From Chloroflexota bacterium (GTDB taxonomy: Bacteria > Chloroflexota > Limnocylindria > P2-11E), in NCBI GenBank assembly GCA_005882765.1, contig VBDV01000113.1, positions 1 through 59,735 of the forward strand: a DNA stretch of 59,735 nt. Reading direction: 5' to 3'. A program made the translations under genes and the position numbers. The first letter of the stretch is position 1, and each line of letters opens with the position of its first letter. This document shows positions 28,474 through 47,484 of the stretch, one piece after another. Below the pieces are notes generated by a model. It was not told the origin of the DNA. It searched no databases and worked only from the letters and a program-made list of their open reading frames with translations.

Positions 28474-28755
28474 TTGACCAAGCGAGCGACGCGGCTGCGT
28501 ACGCCCGCCGACCTGCGTGCGCGTCTTTCGTCCTCCGCCGCGGATGCGCGCGCGTGGCGCGCGCTCACGCCATCCGCACGGCGGATCGCCGCGCACTGGA
28601 TCGACGGCGCGAGGCAGCCCGACGTGCGCAATTGGCGGATCGCTGATGTGCTCCGACGCGCGCATCGATACCAGCGGGGCGACGGACCTTTCTATCCGAG
28701 CGACCAGGAGCAGCACCTTCTGTCAAGGCGCGGGGCCGCAAGACGCGGCCGATGA
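28474..28755 (+). CDS. YdeI/OmpD-associated family small protein
   Basis: PADL...AW.ALTPS.R....WI..A.....R..RI pattern. Confidence 0.65.
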   Translation: MTKRATRLRTPADLRARLSSSAADARAWRALTPSARRIAAHWIDGARQPDVRNWRIADVLRRAHRYQRGDGPFYPSDQEQHLLSRRGAARRGR

Positions 28756-28845
28756 AAGGTTCTCATCATCGGCTCCGGTCCGATCACAATCGCCTCGCCG
28801 CTGAGTTCGACGACGCCGGATCGCAAGCCTGGCGTTCCTTCGGTC

Positions 28846-28922
28846 TGGCGGTCCCGACCGGATTCGAACCGGCGATCTCGTCCTTGACAGGGACGTATGC
28901 TAGGCCGCTGCACCACGGGACC
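28846..28922 (-). tRNA. tRNA-Asp(GTC)
   Basis: GGTCCCGTGGTGCAGCGGCCTAGCATACGTCCCTGTCAAGGACGAGATCGCCGGTTCGAATCCGGTCGGGACCGCCA; anticodon GTC, CCA encoded. Confidence 0.97.
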
Positions 28923-28966
28923 GAACAGAAAAAGCGCGCTTTTGCGCTCTCCCCTCAGACCATTAT

Positions 28967-29009
28967 GAAGAAAAAGAGGCGGCGAGTGCGCTTCCTTTCA
29001 CTCGCCGCC
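28967..29009 (-). terminator. Intrinsic terminator after the gene at 29034-29342
   Basis: 11-bp stem GGCGGCGAGTG/CACTCGCCGCC followed by TCTTTTTCTT on the minus strand. Confidence 0.75.
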
Positions 29010-29033
29010 CCGCCGGTGTGGCCAAACTGATCG

Positions 29034-29342
29034 CTAGCTCGCCGCGAGGAGTCCCTCCCGCAACGGCGTTCCCCCAATGCGCACCTGCCGCACGACCTCG
29101 TTCGCGATCCGGCTCGTCTTTACGAGGCCGCTGAGCGCGAGGTCGAGACCGACCTCGCGAAGCTCCTCATATCCGAGCCCTCGATAGAGCTTGTTCGAGG
29201 CCACGTAGCACATCTCGTCGTACAGGAACGGCCAATCGACTGCCCGTCGTGACAAGCAAAACGAGATGAAATCGATCGCCACCTGAGCGATCCGATCTTC
29301 GGGCACCCCTTCCTTCCCCTTTGCCTTGTCGGCCTCGCGCAT
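29034..29342 (-). CDS. Hypothetical protein (~102 aa; ORF open to 29456)
   Basis: Protein-like segment DFISFCLSRRAVDWPFLYDEMCYVAS...YRGLGYEEL; followed by a terminator. Confidence 0.7.
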   Translation of the reverse strand: MREADKAKGKEGVPEDRIAQVAIDFISFCLSRRAVDWPFLYDEMCYVASNKLYRGLGYEELREVGLDLALSGLVKTSRIANEVVRQVRIGGTPLREGLLAAS

Positions 29343-29375
29343 GATCGTCAGGTGGTCGTCCGCGAACAAGACGAT

Positions 29376-29442
29376 CTGTCCACCAACTTCTCCACAGACT
29401 TCTCCACACGCTCGCGTGCGGCGGTCCACCGAGATATCCACA
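29376..29442 (+). promoter_or_regulatory. DnaA-box-like array
   Basis: CTGTCCACC 29376, TTCTCCACA 29388, TTCTCCACA 29400, CGGTCCACC 29422, ATATCCACA 29434. Confidence 0.6.
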
Positions 29443-29452
29443 GATGTGATAG

Positions 29453-30658
29453 TCATCGCGACCGGTGTCCGCTGAAGCGACGCCGCTCTTTTACCTCGCG
29501 TGCACTCGCGCGATCGAGCGCGCCGTCGCCGAAACGCGAGCGAACTGCATCTAACGCGGCGTTGAGCCGCGCGTGACGGGCGGCGTCGAATAATCCGAGC
29601 TGCTCGCCCGCGGTCACGCCCGAGACCGAAACGCCGATGAGCCGGACAGGGCTGGTTCGACCGCCTTCGCGATCCTGCGCAAGGGCGTCGCGAAGGAGCT
29701 GACGCGCGGTTCGATAGATCGTGACGTCGTCATCGGTTGGTTCACGAAGCGTGCGTTGACGCGTGCGGGTTTCGAACGGCGCGACGCGGAGCGTCATGGT
29801 GATCGTCCGCCCACGGAGGGTGTGATCGCGCAGGCGGCGACCGACTCCTTCCGCAAGGCGGAGAAGCGTCGACTCGATCTTCGCCGTGTCGAGCGTGTTC
29901 GCATCGAACGTATGCGAATGTCCAACGGATTTCGGCGTGTGCTCGCTCTGGACCTCGCCCTCGTCGATCCCGTTCGCGCGCTGCCAGATGTCCGTTCCGT
30001 GCTCCCCCAGGCGCGTCTCCAAGACCGACCGGTCGAAGGCGGCGAGCTGGCCGATCGTCCGGAGATCCCACCCCGCGAGCACTTCCCGCGTCCGCGGGCC
30101 GACGCCCCAAAGCCGCTCGAGGGGGAGTGGCGCGAGGAACGCCCCCTCGCCACCGGCGGGCACGATGACAAGGCCGTCCGGCTTCCGGAGGTCGGAACCG
30201 ACTTTCGCGCAGAGCTTGTTCGTGGCGACGCCGACCGAGACGACCAGTCCGCAGCGCTCCCGGACCGCCCGCTTGATCTGCGTGGCCATCGCGACAGCGC
30301 CGCCGAATAGATGTTCGGTCGCGGTGACGTCGAGGAAGGCCTCGTCGAGGGAGATCGGTTCGACCAGCGGTGTCTGCTCCTCGAATATCGCCATGACCGC
30401 GTCCGACGCTTCGACGTAGCGATCGAAGTTACCCGGCACGTAGATCCCGTCCGGGCAGAGCCGTCCAGCGATCGCGAGCGGCATCGCGGACCGGACGCCG
30501 AAGGCGCGTGCCTCGTAGGACGCGGCCATCACCACGCCGCGTTCGTTCGGGCCGTCGCCGCCGACGATCACCGGTTTGCCGCGGTACTCGGGATGGTCGC
30601 GCTGCTCGACCGACGCGTAGAAGGCGTCCAGGTCGCAGTGCAGGATGGCGCGCGTCAT
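29453..30658 (-). CDS. dinB: DNA polymerase IV (Y-family)
   Basis: HCDLDAFYASVE, AASYEAR.FGV.SAM, SLDEAFLD, SVGVATNKLCAK, QLGLF clamp motif. Confidence 0.95.
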   Translation of the reverse strand: MTRAILHCDLDAFYASVEQRDHPEYRGKPVIVGGDGPNERGVVMAASYEARAFGVRSAMPLAIAGRLCPDGIYVPGNFDRYVEASDAVMAIFEEQTPLVEPISLDEAFLDVTATEHLFGGAVAMATQIKRAVRERCGLVVSVGVATNKLCAKVGSDLRKPDGLVIVPAGGEGAFLAPLPLERLWGVGPRTREVLAGWDLRTIGQLAAFDRSVLETRLGEHGTDIWQRANGIDEGEVQSEHTPKSVGHSHTFDANTLDTAKIESTLLRLAEGVGRRLRDHTLRGRTITMTLRVAPFETRTRQRTLREPTDDDVTIYRTARQLLRDALAQDREGGRTSPVRLIGVSVSGVTAGEQLGLFDAARHARLNAALDAVRSRFGDGALDRASAREVKERRRFSGHRSR

Positions 30659-31785
30659 GCGAACCGCACCCCCACCGTCGTCGCGTCCGGCGCCAGGAAG
30701 CGCAGAAGGTCGTGGCCCTCCGCCTCGACGGCAACGAGTTCCCGTGGCGGGAGCCGAGCGAACGGGGCGACGCGCAGGACTGCCTCGCCCTTCGCGCGGA
30801 TGAGGCCCCACGTCGCGGCAGCGAATCCATCCACCAGAACCACGGCCTCGACGATGCCGTTTTTGGCGTAAATCGCAGGCCGATGCGCCGGCGCGATCAG
30901 GCGATCCCGATGCTGGTAGGCGATGAGCAGCTCGTCGTAGCGCGGAAGGAAGCGCACCGGCGCCTTTACCGCGGAGCTGGGACGGATCGCGCGCGGCATG
31001 TCGTAAAGGATGCGCCCCGTTTCGTCCTTGAAGATCAGAAGCTTCGAGGCCGTGCCCTCGAGCGCGGGCCGCACTCGCGGCGGCGCTTGGCCCGCGAACT
31101 TCGCGACGTCAGCGAGTGTGACTGGGCCGAACGCGGAGACGCACCGACGCACGAGGATCTCGAGCGCGTCTTGCTCAGATGGTCGTTTGCCCCGTGAGAT
31201 CCAGTGGCGCGCGGCCACATAGGGAGCGTCGGTTCCGCCGTATTCCCAATGTCCGCCGGGTGGTGCGGTCACCAGATCGGCATGGGCGCTCACGAAGCGC
31301 CAGACGAGCCAGTTGAAGGGACCGCCGAGCGCTCCTCCGAGCCGCTCCCGGATGTGTTCGAGCACATCCTCCTTTGGACGGGGCGTGCGGGCGAAGGCGA
31401 TCGCCAGTGCGGCCACCTTCTTCGGGTCCACGCCCCTGCCGATCTGCAAGCGATTCCACGCGCCACGCTGGAGGTCCTGCGTCGCGACCGCGTAGGCATA
31501 GAAGTCCCGGGCCGAGACGAGATGAAGCGTGCCCCGCATGAGTCTCGCGCGGACCACGTCGTGCCGCTCGATCGCCGACCAGAGCTTCTCGCGTCGGAAG
31601 CCCGCCAGGCGCGACCAGAGTGCGATGTATGGAGAGGGCGACGATTGTGCCTGCAGTGCCGCGAGTCGCTCGATCGCGGGCACCACGCCGATGTCCGCCC
31701 GCTCGAGGAGGAGCTGTCGCGCGAGCATCGCGCGGTTGAGCTCGCGGAGCGTGAGAACGGCATGAGCGGTAGACGTCTTCGTCAT
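30655..31785 (-). CDS. AlkZ-like (HTH_42 winged-helix) DNA glycosylase
   Basis: LNRA.LARQ.LL.R, QAQ, LWSRL, RGTLHLVS, FGP....D, RFLPRYD. Confidence 0.9.
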   Translation of the reverse strand: MTKTSTAHAVLTLRELNRAMLARQLLLERADIGVVPAIERLAALQAQSSPSPYIALWSRLAGFRREKLWSAIERHDVVRARLMRGTLHLVSARDFYAYAVATQDLQRGAWNRLQIGRGVDPKKVAALAIAFARTPRPKEDVLEHIRERLGGALGGPFNWLVWRFVSAHADLVTAPPGGHWEYGGTDAPYVAARHWISRGKRPSEQDALEILVRRCVSAFGPVTLADVAKFAGQAPPRVRPALEGTASKLLIFKDETGRILYDMPRAIRPSSAVKAPVRFLPRYDELLIAYQHRDRLIAPAHRPAIYAKNGIVEAVVLVDGFAAATWGLIRAKGEAVLRVAPFARLPPRELVAVEAEGHDLLRFLAPDATTVGVRFA

Positions 31786-32900
31786 CCGCGCACTCCGTGC
31801 GTTTTGGACTGCGGCGCGTAGAAACGGACGAGCTTTTCGCCCTCCTCGGCCAGAGCAGCGCGATCGGCCCGCGCGAGCGGTTTGAAGGGCCGGAGCTCGA
31901 GTACCGCCTCCTTCGGCCGAACGGCGATCGTCCACCGGCCGGCGACGAAGCCATCGACGACGAACGTGGTCCACACCTCGGCCGAGAAGATGACCTGCTT
32001 GCGGAAAGCCTCGGGGAGGATGCGCGTCCGCTCCGGCGCGGCGTGGCCGAGTAGCGCCGCGTCGAACCGTGCGAGGAATCGCACCGGTGCAGGCACGTCG
32101 GCGGCCGGTCGCGGGGCGCTGGCGAGGTCGATCAGGTCGCGTCCGCGCTCGTCGGTGAAATGTCGCAGGTCCGTCATCCGCGCGAGGGCCGCGCGGATGT
32201 TCGGAACGCGAACGCTGCTCCATGTCGCGATGTCGGCAACAGTCGCCGGGCCGAAGGCGCCGAGATGCCGCCGCACCACGAGGTCATACGCGGCATCAGG
32301 CTTGGGGGCCTTCCTGAGCTTTGCACGCGGCGCGACGTGCCGGGCCAGTTGCCGGTGGTCGAAATGCGCTCCCGTAGCGTCCCAAATGAGTCCGCTTGTC
32401 GCGACCGCGGCCCACGTGAACCAGTTCCGGAGCCTGGGGTTCCTTGCGGCACTCGGCGGAAGGTGGGCCGCGCTGAATTCCTCGATCTCGGTGCGGGTTC
32501 GGGGGGTCTTGGCCGCGAACGTCATGACCTTCTTATGCAGCCCCTCGAGATCAGCCAGTGCGGGGCCGCCCGGCGGGCGCCACGCGCCGAAGCGGCCTTC
32601 CATCGTCGCGAGCGAGTACGCCGGATACTCGCCTGCCGAGACAAGATGCAGCGTCGCCCGCATCAGGGTCGCTTTCACGACCTGCCCGCGGTCGATAGCA
32701 CGCGTGAGCTCGTCGCGCTTGAAGCTCGCAAGACGAGACCAGAGCGCGACATACGGCGACGGCGCCCACTGACCCTGAAGGCAGCCCAGACGCTCGACCG
32801 CGTCGACCACATCGATCTTCTGGCGTTTCAGCAGGAACTGCCGCGCCAGGAGCGCGCGATTCAGCTCACGAATGGTGAGCGAGGGAACGCGTAGCGGCAT
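31782..32900 (-). CDS. AlkZ-like (HTH_42 winged-helix) DNA glycosylase, paralog
   Basis: LNRALLARQFLL, QGQ, LWSRL, RATLHLVS, FGPATVAD, RFLARFD. Confidence 0.9.
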   Translation of the reverse strand: MPLRVPSLTIRELNRALLARQFLLKRQKIDVVDAVERLGCLQGQWAPSPYVALWSRLASFKRDELTRAIDRGQVVKATLMRATLHLVSAGEYPAYSLATMEGRFGAWRPPGGPALADLEGLHKKVMTFAAKTPRTRTEIEEFSAAHLPPSAARNPRLRNWFTWAAVATSGLIWDATGAHFDHRQLARHVAPRAKLRKAPKPDAAYDLVVRRHLGAFGPATVADIATWSSVRVPNIRAALARMTDLRHFTDERGRDLIDLASAPRPAADVPAPVRFLARFDAALLGHAAPERTRILPEAFRKQVIFSAEVWTTFVVDGFVAGRWTIAVRPKEAVLELRPFKPLARADRAALAEEGEKLVRFYAPQSKTHGVRG

Positions 32901-32912
32901 CGATCGACGAAG

Positions 32913-33524
32913 CTAGGACAGTTTGCGGATTACGCCGATGACCTTCCCTTGGATCTGCACATCCCGCGCGTAGATGGGGGACATGGCGCCGTTCGCGGGC
33001 TGCAGCCGGATACGGTCCTTCTCTTTGTAGAACCGCTTGAGCGTCGCGACATTGTCCTCGAGCACCGCGACGACGATGTCGCCGTCGCGCGCTGTGTTCT
33101 GCTCCTGCACGACGACGAAGTCGCCATCGTCGATGTGGTCCTCGATCATCGACTTACCGCGAACTTTCAGCACGAAGGTCTCGCGTCCGCGCCCCGCCGC
33201 GAGCTCGCTCGGGAGTCCGATGGTTTCGGAGCGGTCCTCGTAGGCGTGGATTGGCTGACCTGCGGCGATCTCGCCGACGACCGGAGCCTGCACCACCCGA
33301 CCGCCGTTCATGCCAGGGAGACTGAGGGCTCGTGACCGAGTGGCCTCCTTGTTGAGGCGCCCGTCCTTCTCGAGCTTGGTGAGGTGGTGATGAACGGCCG
33401 ATGTCGAGGCGAGCCCCACCGCCTCCGCGATCTCGCGCACGCTCGGGGGATATCCCCTTTCGGCGACGGCCTCGCGGATAAACGCCAGGATGCGGTCCGC
33501 CCGCTGCTGGTCTTGCTTTGTCAC
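32913..33524 (-). CDS. lexA: SOS repressor LexA
   Basis: GYPPSVREI HTH, AG cleavage site (IAAGQP), catalytic GKSM and TLKR. Confidence 0.97.
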   Translation of the reverse strand: MTKQDQQRADRILAFIREAVAERGYPPSVREIAEAVGLASTSAVHHHLTKLEKDGRLNKEATRSRALSLPGMNGGRVVQAPVVGEIAAGQPIHAYEDRSETIGLPSELAAGRGRETFVLKVRGKSMIEDHIDDGDFVVVQEQNTARDGDIVVAVLEDNVATLKRFYKEKDRIRLQPANGAMSPIYARDVQIQGKVIGVIRKLS

Positions 33525-33535
33525 GCTTGTTCCTG

Positions 33536-33565
33536 AGGGTAACCGAACGGATGTTCAGTTGTCAA
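33536..33565 (-). promoter_or_regulatory. lexA promoter with SOS box
   Basis: TTGACA(33565-33560)-18nt-TACCCT(33541-33536), with GAAC-ggat-GTTC (33545-33556) in the spacer. Confidence 0.85.
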
Positions 33566-33587
33566 GCGCGCCCGTATTCTCCGCCCG

Positions 33588-34355
33588 ATGCCGCTCGATC
33601 CGGTCGTTATCCGGGACAACCTCTTGGACTACGGCGCGCGGACCTTCTGGGCCCTCATCGTGGCCGCGATCACCCTACTTATCGCGCGGGGCGTCCGCGG
33701 CGCGACGATGCGCATGCTCGCCCGCAATCGCGCCCAGGCGAACGTCACGATCCTTCTCGGCAACCTCGCGCAGCTCGTCATCATCACCGTCGGCATCCTC
33801 GCGATCGTCGCGATCTACACCCGCGACGCCTTCGGCTGGATCCTCACCTCGTTCAGCGTCGTTGGTCTGGTCATCGGCCTCTCGCTACAGGACATCCTCA
33901 AGAACTTCTTCGCCGGCGTATGGGTCCTGGTCGAGCGGCCGTTCCGGATCGGGGACGCGATAGAGGTCGCCGGATACAGCGGCTCGGTTGAGGAGATCTC
34001 CTTCCGCACGACGCAGCTGCGCACCGACGACGGTCGCGAGGTCATCGTGCCGAACGGCACGTTCATGACGTCCGCGGTCGTCAATCTCACCCGCTTCCCG
34101 ACCCGAAGAGCCTCGGCATGGCTCGTCCTCCCCGCGGACGAGAAGGCCGTCACCGCCGAGGACGTTCGCGCGGCGCTGCAGAAAGCCGAGGGGGTGTCGC
34201 CCGAGCCGCCGCCATCGGTCGAGCTGCGCAGCGTTTCCGACGGCAAAGCTCAGTACGTCGTTTCGTTCTGGGCTGCCAATCGCGATGCGGCCCTCGCTCC
34301 CGCCCTGCGCGCGCTTCGGGCACGGTTCCCGCAGGGAGAGGTCCACGTTGGCTAA
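33588..34355 (+). CDS. Small-conductance mechanosensitive channel (MscS family)
   Basis: Three TM helices, GLSLQDILKNFFAG, RPFRIGD, IVPNG. Confidence 0.9.
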   Translation: MPLDPVVIRDNLLDYGARTFWALIVAAITLLIARGVRGATMRMLARNRAQANVTILLGNLAQLVIITVGILAIVAIYTRDAFGWILTSFSVVGLVIGLSLQDILKNFFAGVWVLVERPFRIGDAIEVAGYSGSVEEISFRTTQLRTDDGREVIVPNGTFMTSAVVNLTRFPTRRASAWLVLPADEKAVTAEDVRAALQKAEGVSPEPPPSVELRSVSDGKAQYVVSFWAANRDAALAPALRALRARFPQGEVHVG

Positions 34356-41409: not shown

Positions 41410-41428
41410 AGTCTAGAACACGCGTTCT
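41410..41428 (-). promoter_or_regulatory. SOS box abutting a leaderless -10 element of the dnaB operon
   Basis: AGAAC-acgc-GTTCT (41415-41428); TAGACT (41415-41410) lies 6 nt before the ATG. Confidence 0.75.
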
Positions 41429-41581: not shown

Positions 41582-41646
41582 TCGTCCACCATCTTCTCCA
41601 CCAACTCATCCACGATTGCTCCACCAGTTTTCGCGAACGTGGACAA
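41582..41646. promoter_or_regulatory. DnaA-box-like array
   Basis: TCGTCCACC 41582, TTCTCCACC 41594, TCATCCACG 41606, TGCTCCACC 41617, inverted TTGTCCACG 41646-41638. Confidence 0.5.
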
Positions 41647-46386: not shown

Positions 46387-47484
46387 TTGACCCGGGAGGA
46401 CAAGTTCGCCAAGGAAGGTCTGACCTTCGACGACGTCCTCCTGATCCCTGCCCGTAGCGACATCCTCCCGACCCAGGTCTCCACCGAGACGCGCCTCACG
46501 AACGAGATCCGCCTCGACATTCCCATCCTCTCCGCCGCCATGGATACGGTCACGGACGCGCGGCTCGCCATCGCGCTTGGTCGCCTCGGCGGTCTCGGTG
46601 TCATCCATCGGAATCTGACCGTGGCGGAGCAGGTCGGAGAGGTGCGGCGGGCGAAGGACGCTGACGTGATCGTCGGCGCAGCGGTCGGCGTCTCCGGCGA
46701 CGCGGATGAGCGCGCGGCGGCGCTCGTAGGGGCGGGTGTCGACGTGATCGTGGTCGACACCGCGCATGGCCACTCCGCGGCCGTCGTGCGGATGGTCGAA
46801 AAGGTGAAGGCGCGGCATCGTGTCGACGTCATCGCTGGAAATGTGGCCACGGCCGAGGGTACCGAGGAGCTGATCGCGGCCGGCGCCGACTGCGTCAAGG
46901 TAGGTATGGGCCCGGGGGCGATCTGCACCACGCGGATCGTCGCGGGAGCTGGAATGCCGCAGATCACGGCGGTCTTCGACTGCGCGGAGGCGGCGGACCG
47001 GCACGGCATTCCCGTGTGCGCCGACGGTGGGATCCAGCATTCCGGCGACATCGCGAAAGCGATCGGCGCCGGTGCGTGGACCGTGATGCTCGGTGGACTT
47101 TTCGCGGGCGTGGACGAATCGCCCGGCGATGTCGTGGAAACCGAGGACGGCGCGTTCAAGTCGTATCGCGGGATGGGCTCGCTTGGCGCGATGGAGGCGC
47201 GGCGTTCGCGCGACCGCTACGGACAGGCCGACGTCGGCGAGTTCTCCAAGCTCGTCCCCGAGGGCGTCGAGGGTCGTGTTCGCGCGCTCGGTCCGCTCGC
47301 GGCGGTCGTGCATCAGCTCGTCGGTGGACTCCGCGCGGGCATGGGCTACGTCGGCGCGGCGACGATCGACGATCTTCGCGCCCGCGCGCGATTCGTTCGC
47401 ATATCCGGTGCGGGCCTTCGCGAATCCCACCCGCATGACATCCGCATCATGTCGGAACCACCGAACTATCGGGTCCGGGCCTAG
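46387..47484 (+). CDS. guaB: IMP dehydrogenase lacking CBS domains
   Basis: [41 protein letters not shown]. Confidence 0.93.

Follow-up and report, generated by a model that had tools for sequence, protein, structure and literature searches.

AlkZ-like glycosylase genes between lexA and dinB: a conserved variant of the putative SOS operon in Candidatus Limnocylindria

Glycosylase genes of the AZL subfamily have been described as self-resistance genes that are linked to biosynthetic gene clusters and often occur in multiple copies, with pairs of AZL paralogs in the TXN and LLD clusters (PMC9040887), and in these pairs each paralog is active alone and the roles of the two are unequal (PMC8934636). 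The related ycaQ of Escherichia coli was reported to be constitutive and unresponsive to mechlorethamine (PMC7367128). Operons that join lexA to a polymerase gene are also on record, such as the one in Geobacter that is induced by damage as a single unit (PMC6511836, citing Jara 2003), and the word "glycosylase" does not occur in the main text of that report. In this article, I describe a locus that brings these kinds of genes together, found in a window (the whole stretch of DNA that was analysed, 59,735 nucleotides of contig VBDV01000113.1) from a soil metagenome-assembled genome of Candidatus Limnocylindria (Chloroflexota; 2.75 Mb in 195 contigs, 87% complete). On its minus strand the gene order is lexA, AlkZ-like 1, AlkZ-like 2 and dinB, all co-oriented, and this cassette is real, conserved and an SOS-operon variant of moderate interest, with a mechanism that is predicted from the sequence.

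The two AlkZ-like proteins resemble the AZL subfamily (Streptomyces sahachiroi AlkZ, HedH4, TxnU2/U4, LldU1/U5) in a full-length PF06224 match with a (Q/H)-x-Q motif, in the AlkZ-like fold modelled for paralog 1 and in being multi-copy per genome, and a pair of diverged paralogs is also what the TXN and LLD clusters contain (PMC9040887, PMC8934636). They differ from it, however, in lying outside a biosynthetic gene cluster and inside a lexA operon, in having a host from the Chloroflexota and not from Streptomyces, and in the Gly that occupies the middle motif position of paralog 1. With E. coli YcaQ and Acinetobacter baumannii AlkX (YQL, Q-x-D) they share the superfamily, the fold and an apparent general repair role outside gene clusters, but the cassette paralogs carry QxQ rather than QxD, and their genes stand behind a predicted LexA box whereas ycaQ is reported to be constitutive (PMC7367128). 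Turning to the operon, the likeness to lexA-imuB-C-polY of Geobacter sulfurreducens (PMC6511836, citing Jara 2003) is that lexA comes first in an autoregulated unit ending in a Y-family polymerase gene, and the bare lexA-dinB form found in Limnocylindria provides a likeness to such operons within the class itself; the cassette differs from them in that lexA and the polymerase gene are separated by one glycosylase gene or two, and in its LexA box, which is of the Gram-positive Cheo type. The imuA-imuB-dnaE2 cassette is similar as a LexA-controlled damage-tolerance module, but it has no glycosylase and is unlinked to lexA in this genome. The locus is a variant of known damage-inducible operons and no new kind of system. 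A published link of AlkZ, HTH_42 or DUF1006 genes to LexA or the SOS response was not found in a literature search that left most subscription journals outside its scope, and the gene-neighbourhood Tables S1-S3 of PMC9040887, which might bear on novelty, cover Streptomyces only.

The cassette, its promoter and its conservation

The first gene, lexA (32913-33524, minus strand, 203 amino acids from a GTG start), scores 202.6 bits against TIGR00498, where the cut-off for a LexA equivalog is 110.95, and has the Peptidase_S24 and LexA_DNA_bind domains; its translation shows the Ala-Gly cleavage site (IAAGQP), the Ser (GKSMIED) and the Lys (ATLKRF), and it is the only lexA found in this 87%-complete genome. 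AlkZ-like paralog 1 (31782-32900, minus strand, 372 amino acids, Q42-G-Q44) and paralog 2 (30655-31785, minus strand, 376 amino acids, Q45-A-Q47) both cover the PF06224 profile from position 1 to 329 of 329, with E 9.6e-58 and 3.5e-63 and with 196.8 and 214.7 bits, respectively, where the cut-off is 25.9. The last gene, dinB (29453-30658, minus strand, 401 amino acids), encodes DNA polymerase IV (Pol IV) with IMS, IMS_C and IMS_HHH domains and lies above the NCBIfam cut-offs for this enzyme (PRK03858, 375.7 against 367; PRK02406, 352.4 against 256), its translation including DLDAFYASVE and SLDEAFLDV, which I take to be the catalytic stretches, and QLGLF, presumably a clamp-type motif. Between the lexA stop and the ATG of paralog 1 there is a gap of 12 nucleotides, and the two junctions that follow are ATGA overlaps of stop and start, the first at 31782-31785 (paralog 1 to paralog 2) and the second at 30655-30658 (paralog 2 to dinB), so that there is no intergenic space for promoters inside the cassette. 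The original prediction for this DNA, made from the letters and a list of open reading frames, had described four co-oriented genes, the last three joined by ATGA overlaps, behind an autoregulated promoter and with QxQ motifs (QGQ and QAQ) in both HTH_42 proteins, and it is right in every detail compared: profile matches agree with the gene positions, the junctions can be read in the sequence, the motifs align to that of AlkZ, and a promoter with a predicted LexA box does precede lexA.

That promoter (33536-33565, minus strand), the only one recognised for the unit, reads TTGACA / GAACATCCGTTC / TACCCT, with the -35 element TTGACA at 33560-33565, the -10 element TACCCT at 33536-33541 and a spacer of 18 nucleotides that holds a putative LexA box of the Cheo type (GAAC-N4-GTTC), GAACATCCGTTC, at 33545-33556; from this position, bound LexA would occupy the gap between -35 and -10. 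The GTG start lies 11 nucleotides past the -10 element, so the lexA mRNA would have little or no leader. A consensus scan of 28700-33750 returned no promoters and one in-gene terminator-like site, and it overlooked the lexA promoter because the -10 element there is TACCCT. The same layout of -35, box and -10 stands before lexA in 33 of 33 class loci examined, and within this genome GAAC-N4-GTTC boxes in a TA-flanked promoter context also precede uvrB, imuA'-imuB and dnaE2 (the latter two at C147:1762 and C147:8632), as well as a gene for an MrfA-like DEAD/MZB helicase and the intein-bearing dnaB of the window (box at 41416). The damage-response and replication genes behind it support the reading of this motif as a LexA box, and a Cheo-type LexA box in Chloroflexi is already known from Dehalococcoides. 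Since imuA'-imuB and dnaE2 are present behind their own GAAC-N4-GTTC boxes, the cassette is an addition to the mutasome and no replacement for it, and the suggestion that it is an alternative to lexA-imuABC does not hold.

The helicase gene is a side observation in its own right: it encodes a DEAD-box helicase with the MrfA Zn-binding domain and lies behind a LexA-type box at C112:3615-5980 of this genome (G000; locus L075). MrfA is a mitomycin-repair helicase of Bacillus subtilis, and the gene would be a second SOS-linked crosslink-repair candidate in the genome.

Conservation was followed in two sets, the 40 nearest genomes and the 80 closest relatives of the AlkZ-like proteins among GTDB species genomes, beyond which there are 260 more distant relatives that the counts do not include. 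Within the same genus the full lexA-AlkZ-AlkZ-dinB arrangement is on one contig in 18 of 21 genomes and is cut by contig ends in the other three (17 of 19 with the unpublished G011 and G021 set aside), and the second family has the full cassette in both of its genomes. Reduced forms occur as well: in G022 and G023 the slot holds one AlkZ gene, and in G024 lexA and dinB are separated by a gap of 295 nucleotides that encodes the final 41 AlkZ-like codons abutting the dinB start (58% identity, E 2e-8). In a further family (f4), lexA is directly beside dinB in five of seven genomes and the other two (G028 and G038) contain broken AlkZ pieces in different frames; G033 has the reversed order dinB-lexA, and lexA and dinB are apart in the six genomes of family f3. 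These forms of the locus within the class, AlkZ-free, single-gene, remnant and broken, suggest that the AlkZ genes were inserted into a pre-existing lexA-dinB operon, a direction that is read here without rooting.

The original prediction had looked to synteny of lexA, HTH_42 and dinB genes, and this is conserved not only among the 40 genomes but also in the GTDB set, where 56 of the 80 relatives adjoin lexA and/or dinB and 24 adjoin neither. Both paralogs are present in 38 of the 80 loci (35 of them show lexA and 36 show dinB, contig ends having cut off the remainder), while one locus has paralog 2 at a contig start, two show lexA and paralog 1 and then the contig end, and 12 have one AlkZ-like gene of a third type; the single-gene loci also include lexA-paralog 2-dinB (L090) and lexA-paralog 1-dinB (L119 and L134). 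The 24 loci without a nearby lexA or dinB belong mostly to Actinomycetota, Myxococcota, Acidobacteriota, Bacillota and Dormibacterota, and several are titled as other Chloroflexota (L118, L127, L132, L141, L145, L147). Among the 29 full two-paralog loci the junction of the two AlkZ-like genes is a 4-nucleotide overlap in 28, and that of paralog 2 with dinB in 23, with single-gene cassettes overlapping dinB too. The cassette layout is class-wide in Limnocylindria, and, on the basis of these overlaps and of the promoter layout in 33 of 33 loci, the arrangement is more than chance. A separate observation concerns the gap between lexA and the first AlkZ-like gene, where co-oriented genes of the TnpB / IS605-OrfB type (417 and 408 amino acids) sit exactly in two different cassette types (L046 1109-2362, the same as L091, and L123 2982-4208), and L104 has a lexA/AlkZ-like gap of similar size.

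Two AlkZ-like paralogs and their possible roles

Paralog 1 has LQGQ at residues 41-44 and paralog 2 has LQAQ at residues 44-47, and both motifs align with VQAQ of S. sahachiroi AlkZ (PDB 5UUJ), which the two proteins match with E 2.3e-16 and 4.7e-9, respectively. Both motif Gln residues are invariant in the 39 aligned orthologs of paralog 1 and the 38 of paralog 2; both proteins have the (Q/H)-Phi-Q motif of the published definition at the AlkZ position (PMC9040887), with the reservation that Phi is a non-aliphatic Gly in most orthologs of paralog 1. For paralog 1 a structure model was obtained (predicted local distance difference test, pLDDT, 78; predicted template modelling score, pTM, 0.77), whose best match in Foldseek is 5UUJ (template modelling score, TM, 0.70; E 2.4e-16; 22% identity in the fold alignment), followed by AlkX/YcaQ 9ZD6 (TM 0.63) and then by the AlkZ-like C-terminal domain of Lhr, and on this model paralog 1 is predicted to have the AlkZ fold.

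The two paralogs are 42% identical to each other, orthologs inside each paralog clade share 64-88% identity, and each paralog forms its own clade with a support of 100, with the genes of the single-copy cassettes as the sister group of paralog 1 (support 92). The trees behind these values were quick LG+G4 trees from which the fragments L060 and L068 and a near-duplicate C180 copy had been dropped, and in a second tree the two large paralog clades were thinned to every third row. When the paralog clades are compared, 88 columns of the alignment show the same conservation in both and 39 are conserved within each clade but differ between them, the latter clustering near residues 91-125, 164-195, 277-286 and 304-322 of paralog 1. 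Paralogs 1 and 2 are shown by these comparisons to be old and diverged, each apparently under its own constraint, and the 39 clade-fixed differences fit the pattern of two enzymes retained for different jobs and acting independently. The genome holds nine PF06224 matches in all; among its other genes of this family QAQ occurs in three and a YcaQ-like QLD or QID in two (on C147 and C189), one has neither, and the genome-wide scan for GAAC-N4-GTTC found no perfect LexA box near any of them. As a side observation on the history of the pair, the copies of both paralogs from the second family (g5; L052/L059 and L102/L105) nest within the window's genus in the trees and the LexA and DinB of g5 are far more diverged (73% and 60-62% identity); the AlkZ pair may have moved between lineages by transfer or recombination.

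The reading that I consider probable is that this is an SOS master locus, expressed as one transcription unit, which would provide inducible excision by two independent monomeric glycosylases together with Pol IV. In the undamaged cell LexA would occlude the lexA promoter; upon damage, LexA self-cleavage stimulated by RecA would de-repress the whole unit, the stop/start overlaps would couple translation of the cassette genes, and the two glycosylases, acting independently as monomers, would hydrolyse bulky or cross-linking N7-alkylguanine adducts of differing chemistry, their source probably being environmental or microbial genotoxins in soil, while the co-produced Pol IV would cope with lesions, unhooked remnants or gaps met by replication. 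In E. coli, Pol IV can bypass crosslink remnants at N2-guanine and contributes to the tolerance of alkylation damage, and a hand-over from glycosylase to Pol IV, for which membership in the same operon is the evidence, is plausible. Since the lexA-dinB unit also occurs without an AlkZ gene, the adjacency of dinB may be partly historical.

Several points weigh against this reading. The substrates, crosslinks included, would be guesses from family membership, and most paralog 1 orthologs have Gly in the middle of the motif, a position for which the published definition wants an aliphatic residue (PMC9040887). In approximately unbiased tests, a topology that unites every cassette gene in one clade (p 0.49) and one that makes the two paralogs sisters (p 0.54) both escape rejection, so that paralog 2 may have arisen by duplication on the spot or have come with a second insertion. 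In a soil metatranscriptome (one run, as contigs) pieces lie only on the 5' half of lexA and on a small gene downstream of dinB that is described below, with none on the AlkZ-like genes or dinB and none bridging a junction, and these contigs, which come without strand, ends or level, speak neither for nor against expression of the cassette; two of the RNA pieces on the small gene have 21 to 24 differences from the window and so come from relatives. The GAAC-N4-GTTC motif shows no enrichment across the genome (29 sites, with about 26 to be expected from composition), and the boxes are therefore assigned to LexA by their promoter context and conservation. The genome scan for this motif showed no perfect box at recA, and a promoter within lexA might have been overlooked.

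A possible but rather doubtful alternative is that the link to dinB is purely historical, with AlkZ-like genes that landed in lexA-dinB, gained SOS control and serve ordinary base excision repair (apurinic/apyrimidinic endonuclease, Pol I and ligase) with no hand-over to Pol IV. Such a history would suit the bare lexA-dinB of the five f4 genomes and the dinB-lexA of G033, the repeated loss or breakage of AlkZ genes in the slot (the G024 remnant, and G028 and G038) and the TnpB-type insertion sequence elements that also enter the lexA-alkZ gap, from which the site would seem to tolerate insertions; however, the 4-nucleotide overlap of paralog 2 with dinB in 23 of 29 loci, shared by single-gene cassettes, suggests selection for coupled expression, and the arrangement persists across at least two families. 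An elaboration that I regard as improbable would divide the labour, one paralog unhooking the crosslink and the other removing the bulky monoadduct or a second adduct class, with the translationally coupled Pol IV copying past and the small gene, behind its array of GTGGA repeats, tying the locus to replication control; if true, bacteria would have an equivalent of the crosslink repair in vertebrates that combines NEIL3 with translesion synthesis. It is less probable again that one paralog is no longer an enzyme and now serves its partner by binding lesions or in regulation, perhaps as a sensor that recruits the other paralog or Pol IV. The Gly in the middle motif position of most paralog 1 orthologs could be read in this way, and the activity of TxnU4 and LldU1 needs only one motif residue according to PMC8934636, which makes the presence of the motif an imperfect guide to activity; yet neither Gln residue varies among the 39 and 38 aligned orthologs, the two clades share 88 conserved columns, and it is the paralog 1 lineage that provides the lone gene in most single-gene cassettes.

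The least probable reading is the one originally put forward, a heterodimer of the paralogs in which each subunit cuts one side of a crosslink and Pol IV fills in: the genes are always adjacent, with the 4-nucleotide overlap in 28 of 29 full loci, both are kept together in 38 of 80 loci, and the clade-specific fixed differences could be taken for complementary surfaces, but at least 15 loci have a single AlkZ-like gene (L090 with paralog 2, L119 and L134 with paralog 1, and 12 with the third type), the catalytic motif is complete in both paralogs, YcaQ and AlkZ are each reported to excise alone from both strands (PMC13705206), only one protomer engages DNA in the AlkX-DNA crystal (PMC13303869), and the TXN and LLD paralogs are each active alone in a report that does not contain the word heterodimer (PMC8934636).

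The region 3' of dinB

Directly 3' of dinB are five GTGGA repeats that resemble DnaA boxes (29379-29442, minus strand; matched in 0 of 100 shuffles), namely TGTGGA at 29437-29442, GGTGGA at 29425-29430, TGTGGA at 29403-29408, TGTGGA at 29391-29396 and GGTGGA at 29379-29384, and the last three are spaced 12 nucleotides apart. In a scan of 870 kb, 44 of the 56 cassette loci have the strict triple repeat, once each and in every case immediately after dinB, and none of the 24 other loci has it. Compared with the DnaA-box consensus TTATCCACA / TTGTCCACA, relatives carry perfect TGTGGATAA and TGTGGACAA and the window has only versions that agree at 6/9 to 8/9 positions; the direct phasing of the array at 12 nucleotides would also suit another repeat-binding regulator. 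Boxes of this kind were seen elsewhere in the genome too: the dnaA-dnaN spacer (G000 C68:9172-9560, L158), which is likely the replication origin, contains TGTGGATAA, a second TGTGGATAA and TGTGGACAT together with two reverse boxes. The cassette's neighbours in the window are genes for an MscS-type channel, a DUF1232 protein, ribosomal protein L9 and DnaB, and about 180 nucleotides upstream of dnaB there is a second array of four GTGGA repeats with 11-12-nucleotide spacing (41585-41625, minus strand). The window's dnaB contains an intein with a LAGLIDADG domain, and its LexA-type box GAACACGCGTTC is at 41416-41427, 13 nucleotides before the start. Clusters of TGTGGA at C23:36054 and at 47075 of the window fall inside coding regions and are regarded as chance occurrences.

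A further ATGA overlap, absent from the original prediction, leads from dinB into an open reading frame (ORF) of 140 amino acids (29034-29456), and this ATGA is probably no real start, the first 50 or so codons probably being non-coding: the frame is open in the window and has in-frame stops in 10 other contigs, yet the stretch is conserved as DNA. What it may contain is an internal promoter for a small gene, the putative elements of which (29341-29369, minus strand) are TTGTTC at 29364-29369, a spacer of 17 nucleotides and GATCAT at 29341-29346. Promoter-like blocks 3' of the repeats are class-wide in the form TTGTnC, 17-nucleotide spacer, GATGAT, and in an alignment of 19 sequences there is little or no variation in the CTTGT and GATGATGCG blocks and the spacer differs in sequence, a pattern from which promoter function is suggested; a GGAGG-type site stands after GATGATGCG and before the conserved core of about 90 amino acids.

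The small conserved gene itself, ORF5 (29034-29306, minus strand), encodes about 90 amino acids from a GTG at 29306, with a very conserved core, WPxLYDEMCxVA..RLYRGLGYEEL, and it always follows dinB, also in G024 where no AlkZ gene is intact. It has 359 homologues, of which none among the 120 listed has a Pfam domain or a name, searches of Pfam and NCBIfam with ORF5 gave no match, its structure model is poor (pLDDT 61, pTM 0.35), and the Atlas assigned it no family, DsrD at 0.89 being only a lead. Across 46 loci, a search for a LexA box before ORF5 at up to one mismatch found none, save two matches outside promoter positions. Rfam over 28700-33800 matched only a tRNA, which leaves the conserved stretch 3' of dinB without a known RNA family to belong to. 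Downstream of ORF5 is an intrinsic terminator (28966-29009, minus strand) with a stem of 13 base pairs, a loop of 10 nucleotides and a U-run (-30.9 kcal/mol, z -3.78), which the consensus scan overlooked because its loop exceeds 8 nucleotides; it is the first terminator downstream of the lexA promoter, and the same hairpin follows the small gene in L102 and L105. Since this first terminator comes after ORF5, read-through from the SOS promoter into the small gene is possible, and an RNA contig spanning 29030-29429 fits either such read-through or the internal promoter. In family f4 a different arrangement was observed right after dinB, where two LexA boxes lie 30-42 nucleotides apart (L062 2385-2743; also L060, L063-L066 and L068); in L062 these boxes are within a TTGACT/TATCAT promoter, which is followed by an unrelated ORF of about 88 amino acids without a Pfam match.

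Meaning for Limnocylindria and the AlkZ family

Glycosylases of the AlkZ type are known as the self-protection of antibiotic producers, and YcaQ and AlkX as constitutive housekeeping or virulence-linked enzymes. The cassette does not overturn these views, and its practical value is that it offers a clear set of proteins for expression and assay. In a whole class of abundant uncultured soil bacteria, one or two such glycosylases are placed in what appears to be the master SOS operon, beside Pol IV, and the diverged pair of paralogs is natural material for working out substrate choice in the family. The prediction that follows for the biology of these organisms is that bacteria can bring unhooking by base excision under the regulation of their damage response.

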